21,895 nucleotides of DNA from a bacterium (lineage in GTDB: Bacteria > Krumholzibacteriota > Krumholzibacteriia > LZORAL124-64-63). Under the pieces are notes generated by a model that was not told the DNA's origin, ran no database searches, and saw only the letters and a list, made by a program, of their open reading frames with translations. Shown here in pieces: positions 537 to 19,087 of this stretch. The stretch is taken from positions 1 to 21,895 of the forward strand of contig JANOEP010000052.1 in the NCBI GenBank assembly GCA_031441465.1. Reading direction: 5' to 3'. The translations under genes were made by a program, and so were the position numbers. The stretch's first letter is position 1, and the number at the start of each line of letters is the position of its first letter.

Positions 537-566
537 TTGCGGGGGGCCGCGTGCGTGCGCTATGGT
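537..566 (+). promoter_or_regulatory. Possible sigma-70 promoter for purD
   Basis: TTGCGG (537-542), 18-bp spacer, TATGGT (561-566), followed by a GGAGG RBS and the ATG at 595. Confidence 0.35.
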
Positions 567-594
567 CCCGGACGCGATGGGAGGAGGACGGACG

Positions 595-1923
595 ATGACG
601 CCGCAGGTGCTGATCGTGGGCGCGGGAGGGCGTGAGCACGCGCTGGCGCGCCGGCTCGCCGAGTCCGCGTCCCGCCCCCGCCTCTGGGCCGCCCCCGGCA
701 ATCCCGGCCTGCTGCAACTAGCGTCCCGGGCGCCCGTCGATGCCGCCGACCACCACGCGCTGGCCGCTTGGTGCCGCGAGACGGCGATCGACCTGGTGGT
801 CGTCGGGCCCGAGGATCCCCTGATCGCCGGCCTGGCCGACGTCCTGCGCGACGCCGGCCTGGTTGTGTTCGGCCCCGGAGCCGAGGGCGCGCGCCTCGAG
901 GGGGACAAGGAACACGCCAAGCTGATCATGGCGGCGGCCGGTGTGCCGACCGCCGCCTACATCGCCTGCACGAGCCTCGACGAGGCGCTCTCCCGCCTCG
1001 AGACGGCGGTGTTTCCCCTGGTGGTCAAAGCCTGTGGAGCCGCCCAGGGCAAGGGCGTGGCGGTCTGTGCCGACCGGGCCGCGGCGCGGGCGCATCTGGA
1101 ACTGTGCTTCACGAACGACGCCTTCGGCGAAGCCGGGCGGCGCGTGCTGCTCGAGGAGTGCCTGACCGGCCCCGAACTTTCGCTCCTCGCCGTCACCGAC
1201 GGGCGCGACTACGGTCTGCTCTGCCCGTCGCGCGACCACAAGCGCATCGGCGACGGCGACACCGGTCCCAACACCGGGGGCATGGGCGTCGTCGCGTCCG
1301 CCGCCCTGCTGTCGCCCGGTCTCGGCCGGGCGGTCGGGGAGGGCGTCGTCGCGCCGGTGCTCGCCGAGCTGCGCCGTCGCGGCGTGGACTACCGCGGCGT
1401 GCTGTACGTCGGGCTGATGCTCACGCCGGCCGGTCCCCGCGTGCTGGAATTCAACTGCCGCTTCGGCGATCCCGAGACCCAGGCCGTGCTGCCGCTGCTG
1501 CGCGTCGACTTGCTGGAACTGCTGCGCGCCGCCGCGCGGGGCGGGCTCGGCGACTGGATGGCAGGCCTGCCGGCGCCCGGTCCCGGCGCCCCGCCGGGAT
1601 GGCCCGGCGCCGCCCTGACGGATTGGGAGCGCGCCGCGGCGGTCGTCGTGGCCGCCAGCCACGGCTATCCCGGGCCGATCCGCCGGGGGGACGCGATCAC
1701 GTTGCCGCCGGACCGTGCCGGCGCCTGGGTCGTCCAGGCCGGCACCGCCGAACACGAGGGGCGCCTGGTGACCGCGGGCGGGCGCGTGCTCGGTGTCGTC
1801 GGCGAGGGTGACGACCTGTGCGAGGCCCTGGTCGCCGCCTACGGTCTGCTGGCCGAGGTCCGGTTCGATGGTCTGATCGCCCGCCGCGACATCGGCGGCG
1901 GCGTCCCCGCTACCCAGGAGTGA
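595..1923 (+). CDS. purD: Phosphoribosylamine--glycine ligase (GAR synthetase)
   Basis: Motifs VLIVGAGGREHALA, APGNPG, VVGPEDPL, GKGV, DHKRIGDGDTGPNTGGMG, EFNCRFGDPETQ and TAGGRVL. Start placed at ATG 595, which has a GGAGG RBS upstream. Confidence 0.97.
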   Translation: MTPQVLIVGAGGREHALARRLAESASRPRLWAAPGNPGLLQLASRAPVDAADHHALAAWCRETAIDLVVVGPEDPLIAGLADVLRDAGLVVFGPGAEGARLEGDKEHAKLIMAAAGVPTAAYIACTSLDEALSRLETAVFPLVVKACGAAQGKGVAVCADRAAARAHLELCFTNDAFGEAGRRVLLEECLTGPELSLLAVTDGRDYGLLCPSRDHKRIGDGDTGPNTGGMGVVASAALLSPGLGRAVGEGVVAPVLAELRRRGVDYRGVLYVGLMLTPAGPRVLEFNCRFGDPETQAVLPLLRVDLLELLRAAARGGLGDWMAGLPAPGPGAPPGWPGAALTDWERAAAVVVAASHGYPGPIRRGDAITLPPDRAGAWVVQAGTAEHEGRLVTAGGRVLGVVGEGDDLCEALVAAYGLLAEVRFDGLIARRDIGGGVPATQE

Positions 1924-1926
1924 GGC

Positions 1927-2412
1927 ATGACGAAACGCGCGACGACCCCTGTCAAGGTGATGGTCCTGCTGGGCAGCAAGAGCGACCTACCGGTCATCGA
2001 CGGGCTCCGTGCGCTGCTGGACCGCTTCGGCCTCCCGCACCGGGTCGAGATCGCCTCGGCGCACCGCCAGCCGGACAAACTGCGGCGTCTGGTGGCCGCC
2101 GGCGACCGCGCCGGGATCGCGGTCTACATCGCGGTGGCCGGCATGGCGGCGCACCTGCCCGGCGTGGTGGCATCGTTGACGATGCGGCCGGTGATCGGCG
2201 TGCCGGTCGCGTCGGGCCCGCTGGCCGGCATCGACGCCCTGCTGTCGATGGCCCAGATGCCGGGCGGCGTGCCCGTGGCGACCGTCGCGATCGGACCGGC
2301 GGGCGCGAAGAACGCCGCCGTGCTCGCCGCGCGCATCCTGGCGCTCGGCGACGCGCGCGTGGCGGCGGCGCTGGACGACTTCCGCCGCGAGCAAGCACGC
2401 GGCGGCGGGTGA
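1927..2412 (+). CDS. purE: N5-CAIR mutase / AIR carboxylase catalytic subunit
   Basis: Motifs GSKSDL, SAHRQP, AGMAAHLPGVVA, PVIGVPV, QMPGGVPVATVAIG and AKNAA. Confidence 0.96.
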   Translation: MTKRATTPVKVMVLLGSKSDLPVIDGLRALLDRFGLPHRVEIASAHRQPDKLRRLVAAGDRAGIAVYIAVAGMAAHLPGVVASLTMRPVIGVPVASGPLAGIDALLSMAQMPGGVPVATVAIGPAGAKNAAVLAARILALGDARVAAALDDFRREQARGGG

Positions 2413-2413
2413 G

Positions 2414-3031
2414 ATGGGCGCCCGCACGCACGACCCCGCGGTCGCGGCCCGCTGCCTGGCCGGCGGGGGCGTGGTGCTGATGCCCACCGACACGCTGCCC
2501 GGTCTGCACGCGCGCGCCGACGCGCCGGCGGCCGTGGCGCGCATCACGGTGCTCAAGGGTCGTGACGAAGGCAAGCCGCTGCTGGTGCTCTGCGCCGACG
2601 CCGACGCGGCGCGCGGCCTCGTCGGCGAACTGGCCGGTCGCGTCTGGGATTACGCGGGTCGCTGCTGGCCCGGGCCCTACACGCTGGTGCTGCCGGCGGG
2701 TCCGGCGGCCCCACCGACGGCGACCCGCGGCGGGCCGACCCTGGCCGTGCGCGTGCCGGCGTCGCGGCGGTTGCGCGACCTCATCACCGCGTCCGGCGGC
2801 GCCTTGATCTCCACCAGCGCCAACGTGGCCGGCGAGCCGCCGGCCACGGATCTGGCGTCGGCGGCGCGGCAATTCACCGCCGGCGTCGACCTCGTGCTGG
2901 AGACGGACTGGGACGGGGCGTCGGAGGCTGCCGTCTCGGCGATGTTGGACCTCACCGAATGGCCGCCGCGTTTGTTGAGGCCGGGCCCGCGGGTTCCACC
3001 CGATTGGGAGTCGCATCTCGAAAAGGTTTGA
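2414..3031 (+). CDS. tsaC: L-threonylcarbamoyladenylate synthase (Sua5/YrdC/TsaC family, short form)
   Basis: Motifs PTDTLPGL, LKGR..KPL, WPGPYTLVL, AVRVP and STSANVAG. Confidence 0.9.
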   Translation: MGARTHDPAVAARCLAGGGVVLMPTDTLPGLHARADAPAAVARITVLKGRDEGKPLLVLCADADAARGLVGELAGRVWDYAGRCWPGPYTLVLPAGPAAPPTATRGGPTLAVRVPASRRLRDLITASGGALISTSANVAGEPPATDLASAARQFTAGVDLVLETDWDGASEAAVSAMLDLTEWPPRLLRPGPRVPPDWESHLEKV

Positions 3032-7683: not shown

Positions 7684-8169
7684 ATGAACAAGACCGTCAA
7701 GCAGACCGCGCCCTTCGCGGACGGCCCGGCCTTCCGCCTGGCCGAGACCGCCGCCCACGCCGCCCTGGTCAAGAAGGGGGAGGACGTGCTGGTGCTGGAT
7801 CTCGCCGGGCGCTCCGACGTGGCCGACTACTTCGTGATCGCCACCGGCGGCAGCGACCAGCAGGTCGACGCCGTCGCCCGCGGGGTCGCCGAAGCGGCGG
7901 CGGCCGAGGGCCAGAAGCTCCTGCACGGCGAGGGACGCGACCGCAACTACTGGGTCCTGCTGGATTTCTTCGACGTCGTGGTCCACGTCCTGCAGCCGCG
8001 CGCCCGCCAGTACTACTCGCTCGAACGCCTCTGGAACGACGCGCCCTGCCTCGTCGTGGGACCGGACTACTTCGCGCGGGCCGACGTCCGCCGGCGCCGG
8101 CCGGATCTCCAGCTGGTCCGCCTCGCGGGCCGGGACGAGGCGACGAAGCAGACGGGAGCCGGGAAGTGA
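7684..8169 (+). CDS. rsfS: Ribosome silencing factor (Iojap family)
   Basis: Motifs KKGEDVLVLDL, DYFVIATGGS, WVLLDFFDVVVHV and RQYYSLERLW. Confidence 0.93.
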   Translation: MNKTVKQTAPFADGPAFRLAETAAHAALVKKGEDVLVLDLAGRSDVADYFVIATGGSDQQVDAVARGVAEAAAAEGQKLLHGEGRDRNYWVLLDFFDVVVHVLQPRARQYYSLERLWNDAPCLVVGPDYFARADVRRRRPDLQLVRLAGRDEATKQTGAGK

Positions 8170-9908
8170 CCATCCAGGACCTCATCCGGACGGAACTGCA
8201 GCGACGGCTCGAGGAGTACGGCTTCTTCGAAGGGGACGCGACGGTCGAACTCGAGAAGCCGCGTGACCCGGCGCACGGGGATCTCAGCACCAACGTGGCC
8301 CTGACCACCGCCAAGCGGCTCGGCCGCAAGCCCCGCGAGCTGGCCGGCGAGCTGGCGGCCAAGCTCCAGTTCGACAAGGACGTCGTCGCCTCGGTCGAGA
8401 TCGCCGGCCCCGGCTTCATCAACTTCCGCATCGGCCGCCGGCACCAGGTCGCCCAGCTGCTGGACCTGTGGCGCGGCGCGGGCGCGATCGAGGATATCCG
8501 CATCGGCGGCGGGCGCCGCATCAATGTCGAGTTCATCAGCGCCAACCCGACGGGCCCCCTGAACGTGGTGTCGGCGCGGGCCGGCGCCTTCGGGATCACG
8601 CTGGTGCGGCTGCTCGACGCGATCGGGTACGACGCCCACGCGGAGTACTACGTCAACGACGCGGGCCGGCAGGTCCACCTGCTCGGGCGCTCCCTGCGGG
8701 CGCGGTTCTCGGAATTGGTCGGCCGGCCCGAGGCGTTCCCCGAGGACGGCTACAAGGGGCAGTACGTGGCGCAGATGGCCGAGGAGCTGCTGGAACTCGA
8801 CAGCGCGGCGATCCAGCAGCAGGCCGGCGTCTTCAACGACGAGAGTTTCCAGCGCGTCACCGCGCCGGAGGGCGACGCCCGCGCCTGGCTGGATCTGCCG
8901 CCCGACGAGTCGGCCCGGCGCTTCTCGAAGTACGCCCTGATGAAGATCCTCACCTGGCAGCGCCAGACCTGCCGGCGTTTCGGGCTGCGCTTCAACACCT
9001 GGTACTTCGAGTCGGAGCTGCACGAGACCGGGCGCGTCGATCGTGCGTTGGAGCAGCTGCGCAAGTCCGGCGCCGTCTACGAGCTGGACGGGGCCCTCTG
9101 GTTCCGCTCGACGGACTTCGGCGACGAGAAGGACCGGGTCGTGGTGCGCAGCGGGGGCGAGCCCACCTATTTCCTGGCGGACGTGGCCTACCACTACCAC
9201 AAGTTCCAGCGGGGCTTCGAGCACGCCATCGATTTCCTGGGTCCGGACCATCACGGCCACATCCCGCGCATGCAGGGGGCGATGCGGGCGCTCGGCATCC
9301 CCGACGGCTGGCTCGAAGTGCAGATCCTCCAGCAGGTCAACTTCATGGAGAACGGCCGCCCCGTCGACATGTCCAAGCGCGAGGGGCAGTTCGTGACCAT
9401 GGACGCCCTCGGCGACGACGTCGGCGCCGACGTCGCCAAGTACATCTTCCTGACGCGGCGCCCCAACTCCCACCTGGATTTCGACCTGGACCTGGCGCGC
9501 GAGCAGTCCAACGAGAACCCGGTCTACTACGTGAAATACGCGCACGCCCGCATCTGCGCGGTGCTGCGCAAGGCCGAGGCGGCCGGCTGGACGCTCCAGG
9601 AACCCGTCGCCGCGGACCTGATCGGGATGCAAGAGGACGCCGAGTGGAACCTCATGCGCGAGATCGTCCGACTGCCCGGGGTGATCCTGGGCGCCGCCGA
9701 GAGCCGCGAGCCTCACCGGCTGACGGCCTACGCCGCCGACCTCGCCGGCTGCTTCCATCAGTTCTACCACCAGTGCGTCATCGTGGGCGAGGACCGCGAC
9801 CTGACGCGCACCCGGCTCCAGCTCTGCCTGGTCACGCGCAAGGTCCTGCGGGACGTGCTGGACCTGATCGGGGTCGAGGCTCCCGAACAGATGGGCGACA
9901 AGGAGTGA
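8166..9908 (+). CDS. argS: Arginine--tRNA ligase
   Basis: Motifs HGDLSTNVA, AGPGFINF, VEFISANPTGPL, EYYVNDAGRQ, FGDEKDRV, GPDHHGH, MSKREG, ENPVYYVKYAHARI and APEQM. Confidence 0.97.
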   Translation: MTIQDLIRTELQRRLEEYGFFEGDATVELEKPRDPAHGDLSTNVALTTAKRLGRKPRELAGELAAKLQFDKDVVASVEIAGPGFINFRIGRRHQVAQLLDLWRGAGAIEDIRIGGGRRINVEFISANPTGPLNVVSARAGAFGITLVRLLDAIGYDAHAEYYVNDAGRQVHLLGRSLRARFSELVGRPEAFPEDGYKGQYVAQMAEELLELDSAAIQQQAGVFNDESFQRVTAPEGDARAWLDLPPDESARRFSKYALMKILTWQRQTCRRFGLRFNTWYFESELHETGRVDRALEQLRKSGAVYELDGALWFRSTDFGDEKDRVVVRSGGEPTYFLADVAYHYHKFQRGFEHAIDFLGPDHHGHIPRMQGAMRALGIPDGWLEVQILQQVNFMENGRPVDMSKREGQFVTMDALGDDVGADVAKYIFLTRRPNSHLDFDLDLAREQSNENPVYYVKYAHARICAVLRKAEAAGWTLQEPVAADLIGMQEDAEWNLMREIVRLPGVILGAAESREPHRLTAYAADLAGCFHQFYHQCVIVGEDRDLTRTRLQLCLVTRKVLRDVLDLIGVEAPEQMGDKE

Positions 9909-9909
9909 G

Positions 9910-10818
9910 ATGAGCATCCTGGTGGTGGGATCGGTCGCTTACGACACCGTCGAGACGCCGCGCGAGCGGCGCGAGCGCCAGCTCGGAGGCAGCGCCAGCT
10001 ACTTCGCGCTGGCCGCGGCGCGCTTCGCGCCGGTGCGCGCCGTGGGCGTCGTGGGCGGCGACTTCCGCGCCGAGCATCTGGCGCTGCTGGACTCCCGCGG
10101 CGTCGACACCGCCGGGATCGTCCGCCGCGAAGGCCCCACCTTCCACTGGGCCGGCCGCTACCACGAAGACCTGATCGAGCGCGACACCCTGGCCACCGAA
10201 CTGGGCGTATTCCAGGACTTCGCGCCGCAACTGCCGGACGATTGGCGGGAGACGCCCTACCTCTTCCTCGCCAACATCCACCCGGCGCTGCAGGCGGACG
10301 TGCTGGACCAGATGGTCGCACCGCGCCTGATCGTGCTGGACACGATGAACCTCTGGATCAAGTCGACGCGCCGCGAACTCCAGGAGGTCCTGGCCAGGGT
10401 CGATGTCGTGCTGCTGAACGACGGCGAGGCCCGCCTGCTGAGCGGGCAGCGCAGCCTCGCCGCGGCGGCGGCGACGATCAAGGAACTGGGACCGGCCCGG
10501 GTCGTGATCAAGAAAGGCGAGCACGGTGCTCTGCTCTTCGGCCGCGATTCCCTGCTCTCGGTGCCCGCGTTGCTGCTGCCCGAGGTCGTCGACCCGACCG
10601 GTGCGGGCGACTGTTTCGCGGGCGGCTTCGTGGGGTACCTCGCCGCCGCGGGTGCGACGCGGGACGACGACGACCCCGTCTTCCGACAGGCCATGCTCGC
10701 CGGCACGGCGGTGGCATCCGCCTGTCCGGAGGCCTTCAGCGTGGACGGCGTGCTGGCCCTCGACGAGGCGAGCTACTCCCAGCGTTTGGCGACGTTGGCC
10801 GCCATGATGTCCCCTTGA
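9910..10818 (+). CDS. PfkB/ribokinase-family carbohydrate or nucleoside kinase
   Basis: N-terminal VVGSVAYDTVETP and LGGSASY, DTMNLWI, KKGEHGA, and the PfkB signature VDPTGAGDCFAGG. Confidence 0.93.
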   Translation: MSILVVGSVAYDTVETPRERRERQLGGSASYFALAAARFAPVRAVGVVGGDFRAEHLALLDSRGVDTAGIVRREGPTFHWAGRYHEDLIERDTLATELGVFQDFAPQLPDDWRETPYLFLANIHPALQADVLDQMVAPRLIVLDTMNLWIKSTRRELQEVLARVDVVLLNDGEARLLSGQRSLAAAAATIKELGPARVVIKKGEHGALLFGRDSLLSVPALLLPEVVDPTGAGDCFAGGFVGYLAAAGATRDDDDPVFRQAMLAGTAVASACPEAFSVDGVLALDEASYSQRLATLAAMMSP

Positions 10819-10877
10819 GCCGCAGGGCTCCGGTCTCGTCCTGATCGTTCCAGGCGCACTTCTCGGCCTTTTTTTTT
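10817..10877 (+). terminator. Possible weak intrinsic terminator after the PfkB gene
   Basis: Short hairpin GAGCC-GCAG-GGCTC (10817-10830). AGGC...GCCT (10852-10869) runs into a 9-T tract (10869-10877). The stems are short. Confidence 0.3.
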
Positions 10878-10897
10878 ATGTCGAGTGAGATCGTGCC

Positions 10898-10926
10898 TTG
10901 AGCCGGCTGAAGGGATCTGTTAGGAT
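10898..10926 (+). promoter_or_regulatory. Putative sigma-70 promoter for the hypothetical/peptide/HD-GYP module
   Basis: TTGAGC (10898-10903), 17 bp, TAGGAT (10921-10926) with an extended -10 TG. GAGG RBS before ATG 10957. Confidence 0.5.
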
Positions 10927-10956
10927 TCCGCAGATGGATCGCCCGGCCGAGGGCTC

Positions 10957-11883
10957 ATGGACGAGATGGAGGGTCCTGCCTTGGAAGAACCCCGCAACGA
11001 TGATCTCGAATGGGTCAAGGACGCGGAACGATGGATCTGCCAGATCCAGGGTATCCGTCAGTGCAAGATCGACATCGACGAGTCGGGCAAGGTCGCCGGC
11101 ATCCACGTCATCGCAACGACCGCCCGCGAGCCGCGCCATGTGGTACGCGACGTCGAGAGCCTGCTGAAAGCCCGCCTGGATCTGGACGTCTACTACAAGA
11201 AGATCGGCGTCGTGCAGATCATCGAACCCGACGAAGTTGTTCCGGCGGCCGTCGCGCCGGCACCCGCCGTCCCGGCGTCCGCCGTCTTGGCGTCCGCCGT
11301 CTTGGCGCCCGCCGTGCCTGCGACCAGCGTGGCTGCGACCAGCGTGGCGCACGACACGGTGAAAGCGCCGCTCGTCTCCGAGCCGGTGTTGCCCCCACCG
11401 CTGCGGATCCCCGAAGTCCCGAAGCCCCACGTCGTGGCGCGTCCGGCCGTCCTGGTCGAGGAGGCCGCGGCGCCGCGCGTGGAGTGCGCGGGCGTCGGCG
11501 TGATGACCGCCGGCGCGGCCCTGACCGCCACGGTCGAACTGGCGCGCGGCGTGGCCGTGGCCAGGATTCAGGAGACGGGGCCGAACCACCCGGGAACCGA
11601 CCAGCTACTCGTGAGTCGCGCGGCGGTCCGCGCCCTGGCCGACCTGCTGGACGAGTCGGCGACCCTGAGCCTGGCGGACCTGCGCGAGACCGAGATGGCC
11701 GGCGAGCGGGTGACCCTGGTCGCGGTCGATCTGGTCGAAGGACGTCGCAGTGAGCGCTTCTTCGGCAGTTGTTCGCAGCGCCACGGGCCGCACCAGGCGG
11801 CCGTCTACGCCGTTCTGGACGCCCTGAACCGGCGCCTGGACCTCATGAACTTCAGGGAAGGGGGGGACAGACCCTCCGACTGA
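10957..11883 (+). CDS. Uncharacterised protein: N-terminal alpha/beta domain, Pro/Ala-rich linker, C-terminal domain
   Basis: 308-aa ORF with GC3-rich codon use and an RBS. Globular-looking N-terminus (IQGIRQCKIDIDESGKVAGIHVIA...VVRDVESLL...YKKIGVVQ) and a C-terminus ending AAVYAVLDALNRR. Confidence 0.85.
   Translation: MDEMEGPALEEPRNDDLEWVKDAERWICQIQGIRQCKIDIDESGKVAGIHVIATTAREPRHVVRDVESLLKARLDLDVYYKKIGVVQIIEPDEVVPAAVAPAPAVPASAVLASAVLAPAVPATSVAATSVAHDTVKAPLVSEPVLPPPLRIPEVPKPHVVARPAVLVEEAAAPRVECAGVGVMTAGAALTATVELARGVAVARIQETGPNHPGTDQLLVSRAAVRALADLLDESATLSLADLRETEMAGERVTLVAVDLVEGRRSERFFGSCSQRHGPHQAAVYAVLDALNRRLDLMNFREGGDRPSD
11263..11352 (+). repeat. Six degenerate 15-bp in-frame tandem repeats (PAVPA/SAVLA/SAVLA/PAVPA/TSVAA/TSVAH)
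   Basis: Units: CCCGCCGTCCCGGCG, TCCGCCGTCTTGGCG x2, CCCGCCGTGCCTGCG, ACCAGCGTGGCTGCG, ACCAGCGTGGCGCAC. Confidence 0.8.
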
Positions 11884-12007
11884 CCACGGATCCGGCCGAC
11901 TGCGGGGCCGGCGCCTTAGGAGCGAGCGGAGCGGATCGGATTGAAAGGAGCGGAGCCGCCTCTTGTCGTGTGGACAACCACTACGTCCGACATCTGGAGG
12001 TGAGATC

Positions 12008-12052
12008 ATGCTCGACTTCATTCTGAAACTGTTCTATCGGTGGGAGTGGTAG
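12008..12052 (+). CDS. Small ORF, 14-aa hydrophobic/aromatic peptide MLDFILKLFYRWEW
   Basis: GGAGGTGA Shine-Dalgarno at 11996-12003 (GGAGG 7 nt before ATG 12008), TAG at 12050-12052. It lies in an otherwise unexplained intergenic gap and is below the ORF-track cutoff. Confidence 0.7.
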   Translation: MLDFILKLFYRWEW

Positions 12053-12096
12053 TTTCTTGACCACCCCGGCGCCGGTCCCGCTTTACACTCAAGAAC

Positions 12097-12125
12097 TTCA
12101 CTTCTGCGGCCGAACCTAATATCTT
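12097..12125 (+). promoter_or_regulatory. Possible internal sigma-70 promoter for the HD-GYP gene
   Basis: TTCACT (12097-12102), 17 bp, TATCTT (12120-12125) in a locally AT-richer stretch. Confidence 0.3.
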
Positions 12126-12176
12126 GTCAGGAGTCTCCGCCCGCGGGGGCGTTTCCCGAGCCAAGGATCCCGCACC

Positions 12177-13559
12177 TTGAGCCACGCGAGACCCGATCGC
12201 AGCCACCGGCTGTTCCACGCCTATTACGCCGCTGTGCTCGCGGCCAGCGTCGTGCTGGTCGGCTTCCTTGTCGTGGCCCGCCGCCCCGAGAGCCAGGACT
12301 GGCTCGGCTGGGGCTTCTACTTCCTGATCCTGCTGCTGGCCGACACCAAGCTGTCGGAGTCCCAGGCCCGCGACGGGAGCAAGATCCTCTCTTCGCGCAC
12401 CCTCGCCCTGTCGGTGCTGGTGCTGTTCGGCCCCCTGGTCGCCGTTGCGATGGACACGGGCACTTCGCTGGTCCGCGGCCTGCTGCTGCGCCGGTCACCG
12501 GCGCGCAAGATGTTCTTCAACATCGCCATGCTGGCCCTCGCGGACGGGATCGCCGGTCTGATCTATCACGCCCTGCCCTTCCATGACCGCTTTACCACGC
12601 CGCTGTTCCTGCTGCCGTTGGCCGTCGCGCTGGTGACGTACTCCCTGGTCAACAGCCTGATCGTGACGGGGATCATGAGCCTGGATTCGGGCCTGCCCGC
12701 CCGCGAGATCTGGCACCGCGACATCCGCTGGGGCGCGCTGACCGGGCTGATGGAACTGCCGTTCACCGCCATCGTCATCCTGCTGTTCCAGCAGGCCGGC
12801 CCCTGGACGCTGATGATCTTCGTGCCGATCATCTGGGTCATCTTCTCGCTCGGCCGCGCGCACAAGCAGCAGAAGGAAGCCCACATGGCGTCGATCGCCG
12901 TGCTGGCGACGACCCTCGAGGCCGACGAACCCTACACGCACGGCCACAGCTACCGCGTCAGCCAGTACGCCGTGACCATCGGCCGCGCCATGGGCATGTC
13001 GCCGCGCAACCTCGAGGTCCTGGAGTACGGCGGGTTGCTGCACGACATCGGCAAGATCGCCATCAACAACGACATCATCTGCAAGCCCGGACGCCTGACC
13101 GACGAGGAGTTCGCGACCCTGGCCGAGCACCCGGCCATCGGCGCCCGCATCGTCGAGCAGATCAAGTTCCTGCCCGAGACCGTGGACATCGTGCGGCACC
13201 ACCACGAGCGCCCCGACGGCAAGGGCTACCCCGACGGCCTCAAGGGGGACGAGATCACGCTGGGCTCGAGCATCATGAACATCTGCGACGCCTTCGACGC
13301 CATGACCAGCGACCGCTCCTACCGCAAGGCCCTGCCCGTGGAGCGGGCGCTCGAGGAGCTGGTCAAGCACCGCGGCACCCAGTTCAACGCCGCGGTGGTC
13401 GACACCGTGCTGGCCCTGCACCGGCGCGGCGAGTTCGACATCATCCCCGATTCCGCGGTGGAGAAGGTCATCCGCCAGATCCAGCGCGTCGGCGAACCGC
13501 CGGTCCGGGCGGTGCCCACCCCGACCAAGGAAGACCCGGTCCATGAAGTACAGCGATAG
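12177..13559 (+). CDS. Membrane-anchored HD-GYP cyclic-dinucleotide phosphodiesterase
   Basis: About 6-7 hydrophobic segments in the first ~225 aa, then EADEPYTHGHSYRV, LLHDIGK, HPAIGA, HHHERPDGKGYPDGL and DAFDAMTSDRSYRK. TTG start after AAGGA. Confidence 0.93.
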   Translation: MSHARPDRSHRLFHAYYAAVLAASVVLVGFLVVARRPESQDWLGWGFYFLILLLADTKLSESQARDGSKILSSRTLALSVLVLFGPLVAVAMDTGTSLVRGLLLRRSPARKMFFNIAMLALADGIAGLIYHALPFHDRFTTPLFLLPLAVALVTYSLVNSLIVTGIMSLDSGLPAREIWHRDIRWGALTGLMELPFTAIVILLFQQAGPWTLMIFVPIIWVIFSLGRAHKQQKEAHMASIAVLATTLEADEPYTHGHSYRVSQYAVTIGRAMGMSPRNLEVLEYGGLLHDIGKIAINNDIICKPGRLTDEEFATLAEHPAIGARIVEQIKFLPETVDIVRHHHERPDGKGYPDGLKGDEITLGSSIMNICDAFDAMTSDRSYRKALPVERALEELVKHRGTQFNAAVVDTVLALHRRGEFDIIPDSAVEKVIRQIQRVGEPPVRAVPTPTKEDPVHEVQR

Positions 13560-14553
13560 CGGCGTCGACATCGACGCCGCCGCGCGGGCGCTCGCCGGGG
13601 CCAAGCAGGCCATCCGGTCCACCTGGGACGAGCGCGTGCGCAGCGACATCGGCGCCTTCGGCGGGTTGTACCGCGCGGCGCCGGGCGAACCGCTGCTGGT
13701 CGCCAGCGTCGACGGCGTCGGCACGAAGGTCACGATCGCCGCCCGGGTCGGGCGCTACGACACCGTCGGCCAGGACCTGGTCAACCACTGCGTCGACGAC
13801 ATCCTGGTCCAGGGCGCCGAGCCCCTCTTCTTCCTCGACTACTTCGCCACCGGCAAATTGCGCGAGGGCGTGCTCGAGCAGGTGCTCGACGGCTTCGCCC
13901 GGGCCTGCCGCGAGAACGGTTGCGCCCTGCTCGGGGGCGAGACCGCGGAGATGCCCGGCGTGTACGGCGACGGCGACTTCGACCTGGCCGGCTGCATCGT
14001 CGGGCGCGTCCGCGAAGAGGACCTGATCGACGGTTCGGCCATCCGCGCCGGGGACCGGCTCTGGGGCCTGCCCAGCACCGGCCTGCACACCAACGGCTAC
14101 TCGCTGGCCCGCCGGATCCTGTTCGAGACGGCGGGCTACGGTCCCGACGACGTGCTGCCGGGCTGCGACGGCACGGCCGCCGACCTTCTGCTGGCCGTCC
14201 ACCGCAGCTACCTGCCCCACGTGCGCGCGCTCTGGCGGGACCTGGGCCGGCCGGCCGTCCACGGCCTGGCCCACATCACCGGCGGCGGCTTCTACGACAA
14301 CGTGCCGCGCATCGTCCCGGACGGTCTCTGCTGCCGCATCGACACCGCGGCCTGGACCGTGCCGCCCCTCTTCCGGCTCCTGCAGCGGGCGGGAGCGGTC
14401 GCGGCGCCGGAGATGTACCGGGTGTTCAACATGGGAGTCGGGATGGTCTGCGTGCTGGCGGCCGACGCCGACCCTTCCGTCCCAGCGGCGCTCGGAGCGT
14501 TGCCCATCGGCGAGGTCGTGGCGGGTCCGCGCAAGGTCGAAGTCCTGCTGTAA
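13543..14553 (+). CDS. purM: Phosphoribosylformylglycinamidine cyclo-ligase (AIR synthetase)
   Basis: Motifs YSDSGVDID, DGVGTK, GAEPLFFLDY, GGETAEMPG, STGLHTNGYSLAR, AHITGGG and FNMGVGM. Confidence 0.97.
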   Translation: MKYSDSGVDIDAAARALAGAKQAIRSTWDERVRSDIGAFGGLYRAAPGEPLLVASVDGVGTKVTIAARVGRYDTVGQDLVNHCVDDILVQGAEPLFFLDYFATGKLREGVLEQVLDGFARACRENGCALLGGETAEMPGVYGDGDFDLAGCIVGRVREEDLIDGSAIRAGDRLWGLPSTGLHTNGYSLARRILFETAGYGPDDVLPGCDGTAADLLLAVHRSYLPHVRALWRDLGRPAVHGLAHITGGGFYDNVPRIVPDGLCCRIDTAAWTVPPLFRLLQRAGAVAAPEMYRVFNMGVGMVCVLAADADPSVPAALGALPIGEVVAGPRKVEVLL

Positions 14554-14794: not shown

Positions 14795-16302
<1,508 letters not shown>

Positions 16303-16306
<4 letters not shown>

Positions 16307-17958: not shown

Positions 17959-18482
17959 GCGATCCGCGGCGCCACGCCTTCCCGTACTGCCCGCGCTGCC
18001 GCGAACCCATGGGGCGGAACGACGAGGGCGGCGTCGCCCGGCCCGCGTGCCCCGCCTGCGGCTTCGTGCAGTACCTCAACCCCTCGCCCGCCGCGGCGGC
18101 CGTGATCCGGCGCGGGCGCCTGGTCTGTCTGGTGCAGCGGAAATTCGCGCCGAAGGTGGGGGAGTGGACCCTGCCCGCCGGCTTCATCGAGTACGACGAG
18201 GACCCGGCCGAGGCCGCCCGCCGCGAGACGCGCGAGGAGACCGGCCTGATCGTGCGCATCGACAGTCTGTTCGCCGTCCATCAGGGCGTGCTGCCGCCGG
18301 ACCGCCCGGTGATCCTGATCGTCTACGCCGCCACCGAACTGGGTGGTGAGCTGCTGGCGGGGGACGATGCCGCCGCCGTCGGCTTCTGGCCCCCGGACGC
18401 GCCTCCCGGCCCGATCGCCTTCTCTTCGCACCGCCGGGTGCTGGCTGCGCTCGCCGTCGCCGAGCGCGAGGCGCGGCCGTGA
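17955..18482 (+). CDS. Nudix hydrolase with N-terminal zinc ribbon
   Basis: ATG 17955 with AGGAGG RBS and ATGA overlap. CPRC...CPACGFVQYLNP and Nudix box GFIEYDEDPAEAARRETREETG. This is the 3' part of ORF-track 16545..18482. Confidence 0.92.
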   Translation: MSDPRRHAFPYCPRCREPMGRNDEGGVARPACPACGFVQYLNPSPAAAAVIRRGRLVCLVQRKFAPKVGEWTLPAGFIEYDEDPAEAARRETREETGLIVRIDSLFAVHQGVLPPDRPVILIVYAATELGGELLAGDDAAAVGFWPPDAPPGPIAFSSHRRVLAALAVAEREARP

Positions 18483-19087
18483 CCGGGCGGACCCTGCCCA
18501 TGGCCGTGCTGCTGTCCGGCAGCGGACGCACGCTGGAGAACCTGCTGGTGAAGATCCGCAGCGGCGCCGTGCCGGTCGCGGTCGTCGCGGCGGTCGCGAG
18601 CCGCGGGGACGTGCGCGGGGTCGCGGTCGCGCGCGATGCCGGCGTTCCGTGCGCCGTGATCCGCCGCAAGGACCACCCCGACGCCGACGCCCACAACGCC
18701 GCCGTGAACGCCTGGCTCGCGCCGTTCGCGCCGCGGTTGATCGCGCTCGCGGGCTACCTCTGCCACTACCGGCCGCCGGCCTGGTTCCACGGCTCGGTAC
18801 TGAACATCCACCCCGCGCTGTTGCCGAGCCACGGCGGCCGCGGCATGTGGGGGCGCCACGTCCACGAGGCCGTCCTGGCCGCCGGCGACGCCGAATCCGG
18901 CTGCACCGTACACCGTGTCAGCGAGGTCTACGACGCCGGCGAGATCCTCGGCCAGCGCCGTGTCCCGGTCCTGCCCGGCGACACACCCGCAACCCTCGCC
19001 GCCCGCGTGTTCGAAGCCGAGTGCGAGCTCTACCCCCGCATCATCGCCGCACAGGCGCACGCCCTGCTGGATGCGCCCGCCCCCTGA
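18479..19087 (+). CDS. purN: Phosphoribosylglycinamide formyltransferase
   Basis: Motifs AVLLSGSGRTL, LAGY, LNIHPALLP, SGCTVH, YDAGEI and LAARVFEAECELYP. Confidence 0.95.
   Translation: MTGRTLPMAVLLSGSGRTLENLLVKIRSGAVPVAVVAAVASRGDVRGVAVARDAGVPCAVIRRKDHPDADAHNAAVNAWLAPFAPRLIALAGYLCHYRPPAWFHGSVLNIHPALLPSHGGRGMWGRHVHEAVLAAGDAESGCTVHRVSEVYDAGEILGQRRVPVLPGDTPATLAARVFEAECELYPRIIAAQAHALLDAPAP

Follow-up and report, generated by a model that had tools for sequence, protein, structure and literature searches.

The stretch of DNA analysed here (the window) comprises positions 1 to 21,895 of contig JANOEP010000052.1, from the Krumholzibacteriota assembly GCA_031441465.1. All on the + strand, it contains a gene for a two-domain protein of 308 amino acids (aa), p308 (10957-11883), a 14-codon open reading frame (ORF), here called the micro-ORF (12008-12052), that encodes the peptide MLDFILKLFYRWEW and ends with a TAG stop, and a gene for a 460-aa HD-GYP protein with a TTG start (12177-13559). 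The micro-ORF lies within a structured leader RNA (11901-12082, the extent of the match to a covariance model), and in the family of relatives to which the window belongs it is found strictly together with the HD-GYP gene, whose expression the leader and micro-ORF may control in cis.

A first-pass annotation, made from the sequence of the window alone, had picked out these three ORFs as co-oriented, non-housekeeping genes set among housekeeping genes. The arrangement stands: all three are conserved in many relatives, the flanks are indeed housekeeping genes (argS, pfkB, purM, lnt, purN, purD, purE and glyA), and the HD-GYP gene overlaps purM (13543-14553) by 17 nucleotides (nt), as had been read. 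The position at which the segment had been begun, 10898, is not a gene start; what begins there is a spurious ORF of 89 aa that is out of frame.

The conserved block and its HD-GYP protein

The genes pfkB (9910-10818), p308, MASE9-HD-GYP and purM form a conserved block in the class Candidatus Krumholzibacteriia. Relatives with organism names are all metagenome-assembled, and mostly carry Candidatus Krumholzibacteriia or Krumholzibacteriota labels. In a set of 50 loci centred on HD-GYP orthologues and covering eight families, p308 is directly 5' of the HD-GYP gene in 49 (in the remaining one, L033, the flank is too short) and purM is 3' of it in 48. The pfkB gene is 5' of p308 in every related locus with enough flank. 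A second set of 80 loci was found by p308 similarity; it shares genomes with the first set, and the two are not independent. Here the gene following p308 is HD-GYP in 59 loci and purM directly in 14, with 7 unassigned (3 of them with a short flank). Thus, the neighbours are conserved, yet p308 can persist alone, and in genera from which HD-GYP and the micro-ORF have both disappeared it is still found beside pfkB.

Among the inputs of cyclic di-GMP (c-di-GMP) enzymes, membrane domains of the MASE type are some of the commonest. We know of no MASE-type domain with a known ligand, and to our knowledge the control of HD-GYP phosphodiesterase levels is largely unknown. In the window protein a MASE9 membrane domain is fused N-terminally to the HD-GYP domain, according to Pfam. 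The match to HD_5 (PF13487) is strong (123.5 bits, with the cut-off at 27.2; E 9.7e-36) and takes in residues 242-407 of the protein and all but the first of the 170 profile positions (2-170), with a second match to HD (E 2.4e-20). MASE9 (PF20972) scores 32.8 bits, above its cut-off of 24.3, over profile positions 83-193 of 203 only. A MASE9 domain is expected to have about eight transmembrane segments including a short intramembrane hairpin, and a crude Kyte-Doolittle profile gives approximately 7-8 hydrophobic segments in residues 12-229. The HDxGK, HHE and GYP motifs, correctly noted as intact in the first-pass annotation, are intact in the window protein and in 49/49 orthologues, as invariant columns of the alignment. 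The substrate is presumably c-di-GMP, possibly cyclic GMP-AMP (cGAMP). Six GGDEF-domain matches are present in the genome, so c-di-GMP can be made. Most orthologues of the HD-GYP gene have TTG or GTG in the start column (starts having been chosen by alignment), and the use of these codons rather than ATG suggests that initiation is intrinsically weak.

MASE9-HD-GYP is a described architecture, shared, with all catalytic motifs, by Thermotoga TM1467 and Streptomyces HdgA, and the MASE9 ligand has been proposed to bind inside the membrane, none being known (bioRxiv 10.1101/2021.11.05.467447). The MASE9 passages of that account, by Galperin and Chou, include no leader RNA, micro-ORF or p308-like neighbour (bioRxiv 10.1101/2021.11.05.467447). 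The HD-GYP protein is of a known kind, and its control by a leader and micro-ORF would be a variant of known control.

The micro-ORF and its leader RNA

The ATG of the micro-ORF is 5 nt behind a GGAGGTG Shine-Dalgarno (SD) sequence (11996-12002), the GAGGT core of which is invariant in 29/29 aligned leaders. Among the first 19 related loci, a 14-codon ORF is found at the same site in all 14 that have HD-GYP and in none of the 5 that do not. In family f1, which includes the window, the length is 14 codons in every HD-GYP-bearing locus seen. The combination of SD, ATG and 14 codons ending in E-W-stop is found in 39/91 f1 genomes, once in each, with the window genome among the single-copy cases; the exception is G012, which has two HD-GYP copies and one micro-ORF beside each. 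When f1 genomes are divided by the presence of a full-length HD-GYP orthologue, the micro-ORF is found in 21/21 with the orthologue (12 genera; in one of the 21, G015, the gene is truncated where the contig ends) and in 0/23 without it (9 genera). The tie between a micropeptide gene and the multi-transmembrane HD-GYP gene that had been suspected from the window is therefore borne out.

The entropy at the first, second and third codon positions of the micro-ORF is 0.52, 0.40 and 0.91 (19 distinct f1 sequences), with many synonymous changes. As third positions vary most, the micro-ORF appears to be under coding-type constraint. The f1 peptides follow the consensus M-[LI]-[DE..]-[FWY]-[ILV]-x-x-[LMI]-[FL]-x-[KR]-[WFY]-E-W. 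Micro-ORFs at the same site in other families differ in length and ending: 11-19 aa with a C-terminal K-x-W or Y-W in f6, 20 aa with T-W-W in f5, and 20 aa with G-W-M in a group labelled 'Eisenbacteria'. The 20-aa length is reached only by the f5 and 'MWELL' types, the GWM-stop type is seen in L113, L117, L118 and L135, and L042 and L128 have a GTG start. The stop codon is TAG in 14 and TAA in 14 of 28 micro-ORFs and never TGA, which makes up 61/107 stops (57%) in four neighbouring genes. By its pattern of conservation, the micro-ORF is a real, translated-looking and peptide-constrained gene.

To follow the surrounding RNA, a covariance model (R1) was built from 19 f1 leaders only and searched with strict filters in 151 genomes of the class. 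The window matches with E 1.8e-31, and there is one match each in 27/151 genomes: G000 and 20/43 other f1 genomes, 4/12 of f5 and 2/10 of f6. All six matches outside f1 are full-length and, by comparison of coordinates, directly 5' of an HD-GYP orthologue. There are no matches in the searched genomes of f2, f3, f4, f7, f8 and f9, although the strict filters may lose weak ones. A search of 10700-12400 with Rfam 15, including its c-di-GMP riboswitches, at E <= 10 returned only a chance-level match to Ocean-VII (10.9 bits against a gathering threshold of 53.5). Among the papers searched, none describes, as judged by title and abstract, an HD-GYP gene tied to a mini-protein or to an ORF in its leader. 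We regard the leader RNA with its micro-ORF as an undescribed family, and the earlier impression that no characterised system has this layout agrees with both searches.

In the alignment of the spacer between p308 and HD-GYP, the invariant elements are the SD, the TGG-TAR end of the micro-ORF and two direct AGCGGAGC repeats (11925-11932 and 11949-11956 in the window). The repeats are the most conserved bases of the leader, and 24/28 leaders have at least two. The possibility that AGCGGAGC is a genome-wide repeat or a general operator was considered and rejected for this genome, as the pair occurs once in its 3.49 Mb.

Both the repeats and the micro-ORF are enclosed by a 13-bp long-range helix, P1, identified with RNAalifold and explicit pair counts, with its 5' strand at 11903-11915 and its 3' strand, also seen in folds, at 12068-12080. 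Compensatory changes are found in 10/13 pairs; 94.3% of cells are paired, compared with 37-45% when the partner strand is slid, and 0/500 shuffles match the observed values. A P1 equivalent of different sequence is present in 36/36 micro-ORF loci from all families. Its 3' strand begins 15 nt past the micro-ORF stop in the window. In f5 and f6 it begins 0-6 nt past the stop and before the HD-GYP start, which is itself only about 29-42 nt beyond the micro-ORF stop. In minimum-free-energy folds of six leaders the SD of the micro-ORF is base-paired with a CCTC element behind the second repeat, making the corresponding CGCCTCT of the window (11957-11963, directly 3' of repeat 2) a candidate anti-SD. 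The same six folds pair the AGCGGAGC repeats with the micro-ORF.

Some smaller features of the region are seen in subsets of leaders. Between repeat 2 and a GCAAGTTC-like motif (approximately 11963-11990) there is a hairpin that differs in sequence by lineage while its pairing is kept; its arms differ among L031, L032, L036 and L037, and it was missed by RNAalifold because MAFFT misaligns the region. A CCAC(C)CC run shortly past the stop can base-pair with the W-E-W codons, TGGGAGTGG (12041-12066, f1 relatives), so that in many f1 leaders the stop codon falls within or close to the loop of a small hairpin. The run is missing from L035, the peptide of which nevertheless ends in KWEW. In the stretch from the leader to the HD-GYP start, f1 loci also have a moderately conserved motif, CTGCCGAT ... 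TAtnTTG (12096-12116), which matches neither the sigma-70 nor the sigma-54 consensus and could be a lineage-specific promoter or a part of the RNA.

Control of the HD-GYP gene

Leaders with a micro-ORF precede the HD-GYP gene in f1, f5, f6 and the 'Eisenbacteria'-labelled group. In f3, f7 and f9 the spacer instead carries a sigma-54-type promoter, TGGCAY-N6-CTGCW, in 9/20 loci (strict pattern), compared with 0/29 leader-bearing loci, and none was found in the window's own spacer between p308 and HD-GYP. In f4 and some f8 loci there is no spacer, the p308 stop abutting or overlapping the HD-GYP start (14/59 HD-adjacent loci). The filling of one slot in three ways, with a leader, a sigma-54-type promoter or no spacer, argues that the slot is regulatory and that the enzyme can exist without the peptide. 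When 47 HD-GYP orthologues are placed in a maximum-likelihood tree, one branch (support 99/96) separates all 28 that have a micro-ORF from the others, such that one gain or one loss suffices to explain their distribution. The co-occurrence of the three genes elsewhere, proposed as a check in the first-pass annotation, holds in part: p308 and HD-GYP occur together class-wide and the micro-ORF is strict in f1, but sister families are without it.

We consider it about as probable as not (roughly 0.5) that the micro-ORF encodes a leader peptide which, within its structured leader RNA, controls HD-GYP in cis, and this is the reading that we prefer. In the folded state, P1 and the anti-SD:SD pairing would silence the micro-ORF, and in f5 and f6 this state would also mask the HD-GYP initiation region. 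A ribosome at the [KR]-[WFY]-E-W-stop end of the micro-ORF would unwind P1 or keep it open, and the opened P1 would allow translation of HD-GYP from its weak TTG or GTG start, or read-through into HD-GYP. The conserved C-terminal residues together with the avoidance of TGA suggest that the regulated step may be the dwell time at termination, that is, release at the TAA or TAG stop behind Trp. The output would be the amount of a membrane phosphodiesterase of c-di-GMP (possibly cGAMP), the activity of which is presumably gated by its MASE9 domain. In this scheme p308 would stand apart, as a protein that probably binds a ligand and that is expressed together with HD-GYP without depending on it.

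Known systems resemble parts of this proposal. TnaC is a ribosome-arrest peptide acting at termination, and in the trp, his and ermC leaders the position of the ribosome on the leader ORF selects the RNA pairing. As in the latter, the ribosome could here choose between pairings, with Trp codons at the decisive position. However, the Trp codons are the last of the ORF and not internal, a terminator-like T-run follows in only 4/19 f1 leaders, HD-GYP is unconnected to Trp metabolism, and the alternative pairings are a proposal only. There is a likeness, too, to TnaC and to PepNL, a 14-aa Escherichia coli leader peptide that blocks termination and release, and for which 14 residues suffice (PMC11890864). 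In the window, likewise, a tiny ORF preceded by a strong SD is found in the 5' leader of the gene that it would regulate, with conservation strongest at the C-terminal residues by the stop and with constrained stop identity. It differs from PepNL and TnaC in having no sequence similarity to them, in a downstream gene that encodes a c-di-GMP phosphodiesterase, in a Trp-stop end with TAA or TAG and never TGA (PepNL and TnaC use UGA and release factor 2, RF2), and in the covarying long-range helix with AGCGGAGC repeats that encloses the micro-ORF.

Several observations weigh against control in cis by the leader. The distance from P1 to the HD-GYP start is about 70-170 nt in f1 (about 96 nt in the window), and the f1 HD-GYP gene often has its own SD-like sequence; thus, direct unmasking cannot be the mechanism in the window. 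P1 was also rejected as a general intrinsic terminator, since a T-run follows it in so few of the 19 aligned f1 leaders. The inner helices P2 and P3 have compensatory changes in only 1-2 pairs each, and the anti-SD motif (CYTC within 10 nt after the repeat, strict pattern) is found in only 15/28 leaders. Stalling, attenuation and alternative pairing of the leader are to be taken as proposals only. As the micro-ORF state needs one change on the HD-GYP tree, there have been few independent events from which to judge. RNA-library contigs of a relative of approximately 92% identity, from two metatranscriptome libraries, cover 11564-12409 and 11901-12345, which is a weak hint of transcription from p308 or the leader through the micro-ORF into HD-GYP, although such contigs may include DNA and a single transcript, its ends, strand and level cannot be read from them. 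Lastly, a hydrophobic D...G...K..W pattern is kept along the whole peptide and across families, and this fits a functional free peptide equally well.

Such a free peptide could act in trans, a possibility that we regard as real but rather less probable. The released 11-20-aa hydrophobic peptide would enter the membrane, bind MASE9 and set the phosphodiesterase activity, as a regulatory subunit or intramembrane ligand, with the leader merely tuning the amount of peptide. MgrB- and KdpF-type proteins are about 26-50 aa long with a full transmembrane helix, and the MgrB-PhoQ and KdpF-KdpABC pairs resemble the present one in that an unannotated hydrophobic mini-product is encoded beside a membrane protein and strictly co-inherited with it. 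Co-occurrence, co-loss and co-duplication with HD-GYP are all as would be expected of a subunit, as are the conservation of amino acids over the whole of a strongly hydrophobic, aromatic peptide, which has an acidic residue near its N-terminus and Lys and Trp at its C-terminus, and the very strong SD and ATG of the micro-ORF compared with the weak TTG or GTG start of HD-GYP. The proposal that MASE9 ligands are intramembrane points the same way (bioRxiv 10.1101/2021.11.05.467447). However, the product is shorter than MgrB or KdpF and absent from many orthologous loci: the 14 aa of f1 are under the approximately 18 needed to span a membrane, and peptides of 11-15 aa (f1 and f6) are too short for the bilayer. 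Families also differ in peptide length (11 to 20 aa) though the HD-GYP orthologue is conserved, five families have HD-GYP orthologues without a micro-ORF, and a free peptide does not explain why TGA is avoided or why an RNA helix encloses the micro-ORF.

The first-pass annotation had favoured a quorum-sensing-like peptide-receptor cassette with p308 as partner or effector, which would mean a secreted peptide sensed outside the cell by the multi-transmembrane HD-GYP protein. The tight genetic tie of the peptide to a membrane sensor enzyme is compatible with this, and a short, hydrophobic peptide with a Trp-rich end resembles the precursors of small, hydrophobic, unmodified pheromones in Gram-positive bacteria. 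Nevertheless, Pfam scans of the 24 likely proteins of the 21.9-kb window found no exporter, peptidase or peptide-modification gene. The product, of 11-20 aa (14 here), has no signal or leader sequence and no room for both a leader and a mature peptide, and its gene is embedded in a folded leader RNA with the SD paired. Orthologues of HD-GYP without a micro-ORF, and a p308 that has no signal peptide or transmembrane features and persists without HD-GYP and peptide, are further difficulties. Thus, a secreted signal is very improbable.

Both cis control by the leader and action of the peptide on MASE9 would be informative if true. In the former case, a Trp-stop end with stops of the release factor 1 (RF1) type would enlarge the small set of termination-level sensors; in the latter, the peptide would give a first handle on MASE signalling. 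We hold it possible, though doubtful, that the Trp-terminated micropeptide itself carries the signal, either as the first identified intramembrane ligand or regulatory subunit of a MASE-type sensor, gating a c-di-GMP phosphodiesterase directly, or as a new class of termination-stalling nascent peptide (RF1-dependent, with Trp-tRNA in the P site) that reports cellular state and, by way of its own leader RNA, sets how much phosphodiesterase is made. The control element is compact and defined by its sequence, approximately 180 nt of RNA and a 14-codon ORF in one-to-one association with a MASE9-HD-GYP gene, and the leader can be moved into reporters and in vitro translation without culturing the host phylum.

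p308 and the surroundings of the block

p308 is a lineage-specific, undescribed family. It has no Pfam match at E <= 0.01, including none to LeuA_dimer, and no NCBIfam match at E <= 0.1. Across the class, 36/41 related genomes have it. When 5.8 billion proteins were searched with a profile of p308, there were 224 matches; a Pfam family is found in 0 of the 120 listed, and those of the listed matches that are named by their source are called 'hypothetical protein'. With the leader RNA, two unannotated families are thereby defined for the uncultured Krumholzibacteriota.

In an AlphaFold2 model of p308 (47-row alignment, mean predicted local distance difference test score, pLDDT, 83.5), residues 15-88 form an alpha-beta-beta-alpha-beta, ferredoxin-like domain, residues 89-175 or thereabouts a disordered Pro/Ala-rich linker, and residues 176-294 a (beta-beta-beta-alpha)x2 domain with pLDDT > 90. 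The modelled C-terminal domain resembles the regulatory domains of LeuA (3fig_B; Foldseek E 2.5e-5, 128 columns) and of the citramalate synthase LiCMS (3f6g_B; VIA-align Z 9.3, root-mean-square deviation 3.0, 109/115 residues), with which it shares the (beta-beta-beta-alpha)x2 fold. p308 differs from these enzymes in having no catalytic TIM barrel and in the ferredoxin-like domain and disordered linker that precede. The N-terminal domain is similar to EscJ (1yj7, Z 8.7) and to the C-terminal domains of CDF transporters (Z 8.1-8.6, VIA-align), which is a common fold. There are no signal peptide or transmembrane features in p308, and we take it to be a cytoplasmic, probably dimeric protein that binds a small molecule.

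The coding sequence of the linker contains short tandem nucleotide repeats (11237-11345) that specify AVLAS and ATSVA units, and the length of the linker varies widely among relatives. In L002 and L073, which belong to the genus of the window, the p308 frame runs past the usual stop and through the leader to give 360 aa, while the micro-ORF is intact in another frame. This long frame may be either a true C-terminal extension or an indel of long-read assembly.

A functional partnership of p308 with HD-GYP, with p308 as a small-molecule-sensing regulator or as an RNA-binding regulator of the AGCGGAGC repeats that would tie c-di-GMP turnover to a metabolite signal, can be put forward only tentatively. 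The position of p308 directly 5' of HD-GYP in 59/80 loci is in its favour, the abutting or overlapping stop in 14/59 is typical of translational coupling, and the predicted fold of the C-terminal domain is that of the Leu- or Ile-binding regulatory domain of LeuA and citramalate synthase. On the other hand, purM directly follows p308 with no HD-GYP in 14/80 loci, the tie of p308 to pfkB is equally constant, the AGCGGAGC repeats are missing from families that retain p308, and likeness of fold does not identify a ligand. A complex prediction for HD-GYP and p308 scored 0.00, which is uninformative either way. The persistence of p308 by pfkB in genera without HD-GYP and micro-ORF speaks against the dedicated partner of the first-pass annotation.

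The G+C content of the window is 65-77%. The T-tract that had been noticed ahead of the three genes is present as a T9 run between pfkB and p308 (10869-10877, + strand, read from the sequence), and is not called as a terminator in a consensus scan of 10700-12400. The promoter-like site that had likewise been placed ahead of the three genes could not be recovered, the scan of the same interval giving 0 sigma-70 sites. The one terminator-like hairpin of the interval is inside the HD-GYP coding region and at chance level.

Upstream of the block is argS (8166-9908, + strand), with purD, purE and glyA further upstream; downstream are purM, which encodes AIR synthase (Pfam AIRS and AIRS_C), lnt and purN. 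A gene for a sigma-54 activator (enhancer-binding protein) follows purM (14795-16306, + strand), and might encode the cognate activator of the f3, f7 and f9 promoters. In those families the TGGCAY-N6-CTGCW sequence is about 70-100 nt before the HD-GYP start (L051-L055, L058, L064, L065 and L070). The purine genes purD, purE, purM and purN gather with glyA around the block (562-3031, 13543-14553 and 18479-19087). The pfkB product, a PfkB-family sugar/nucleoside kinase (Pfam PfkB, E 2.2e-26), could be a nucleoside or ribose kinase, and a purine-metabolic tie for p308 and a GMP-releasing phosphodiesterase is conceivable from this gene content.

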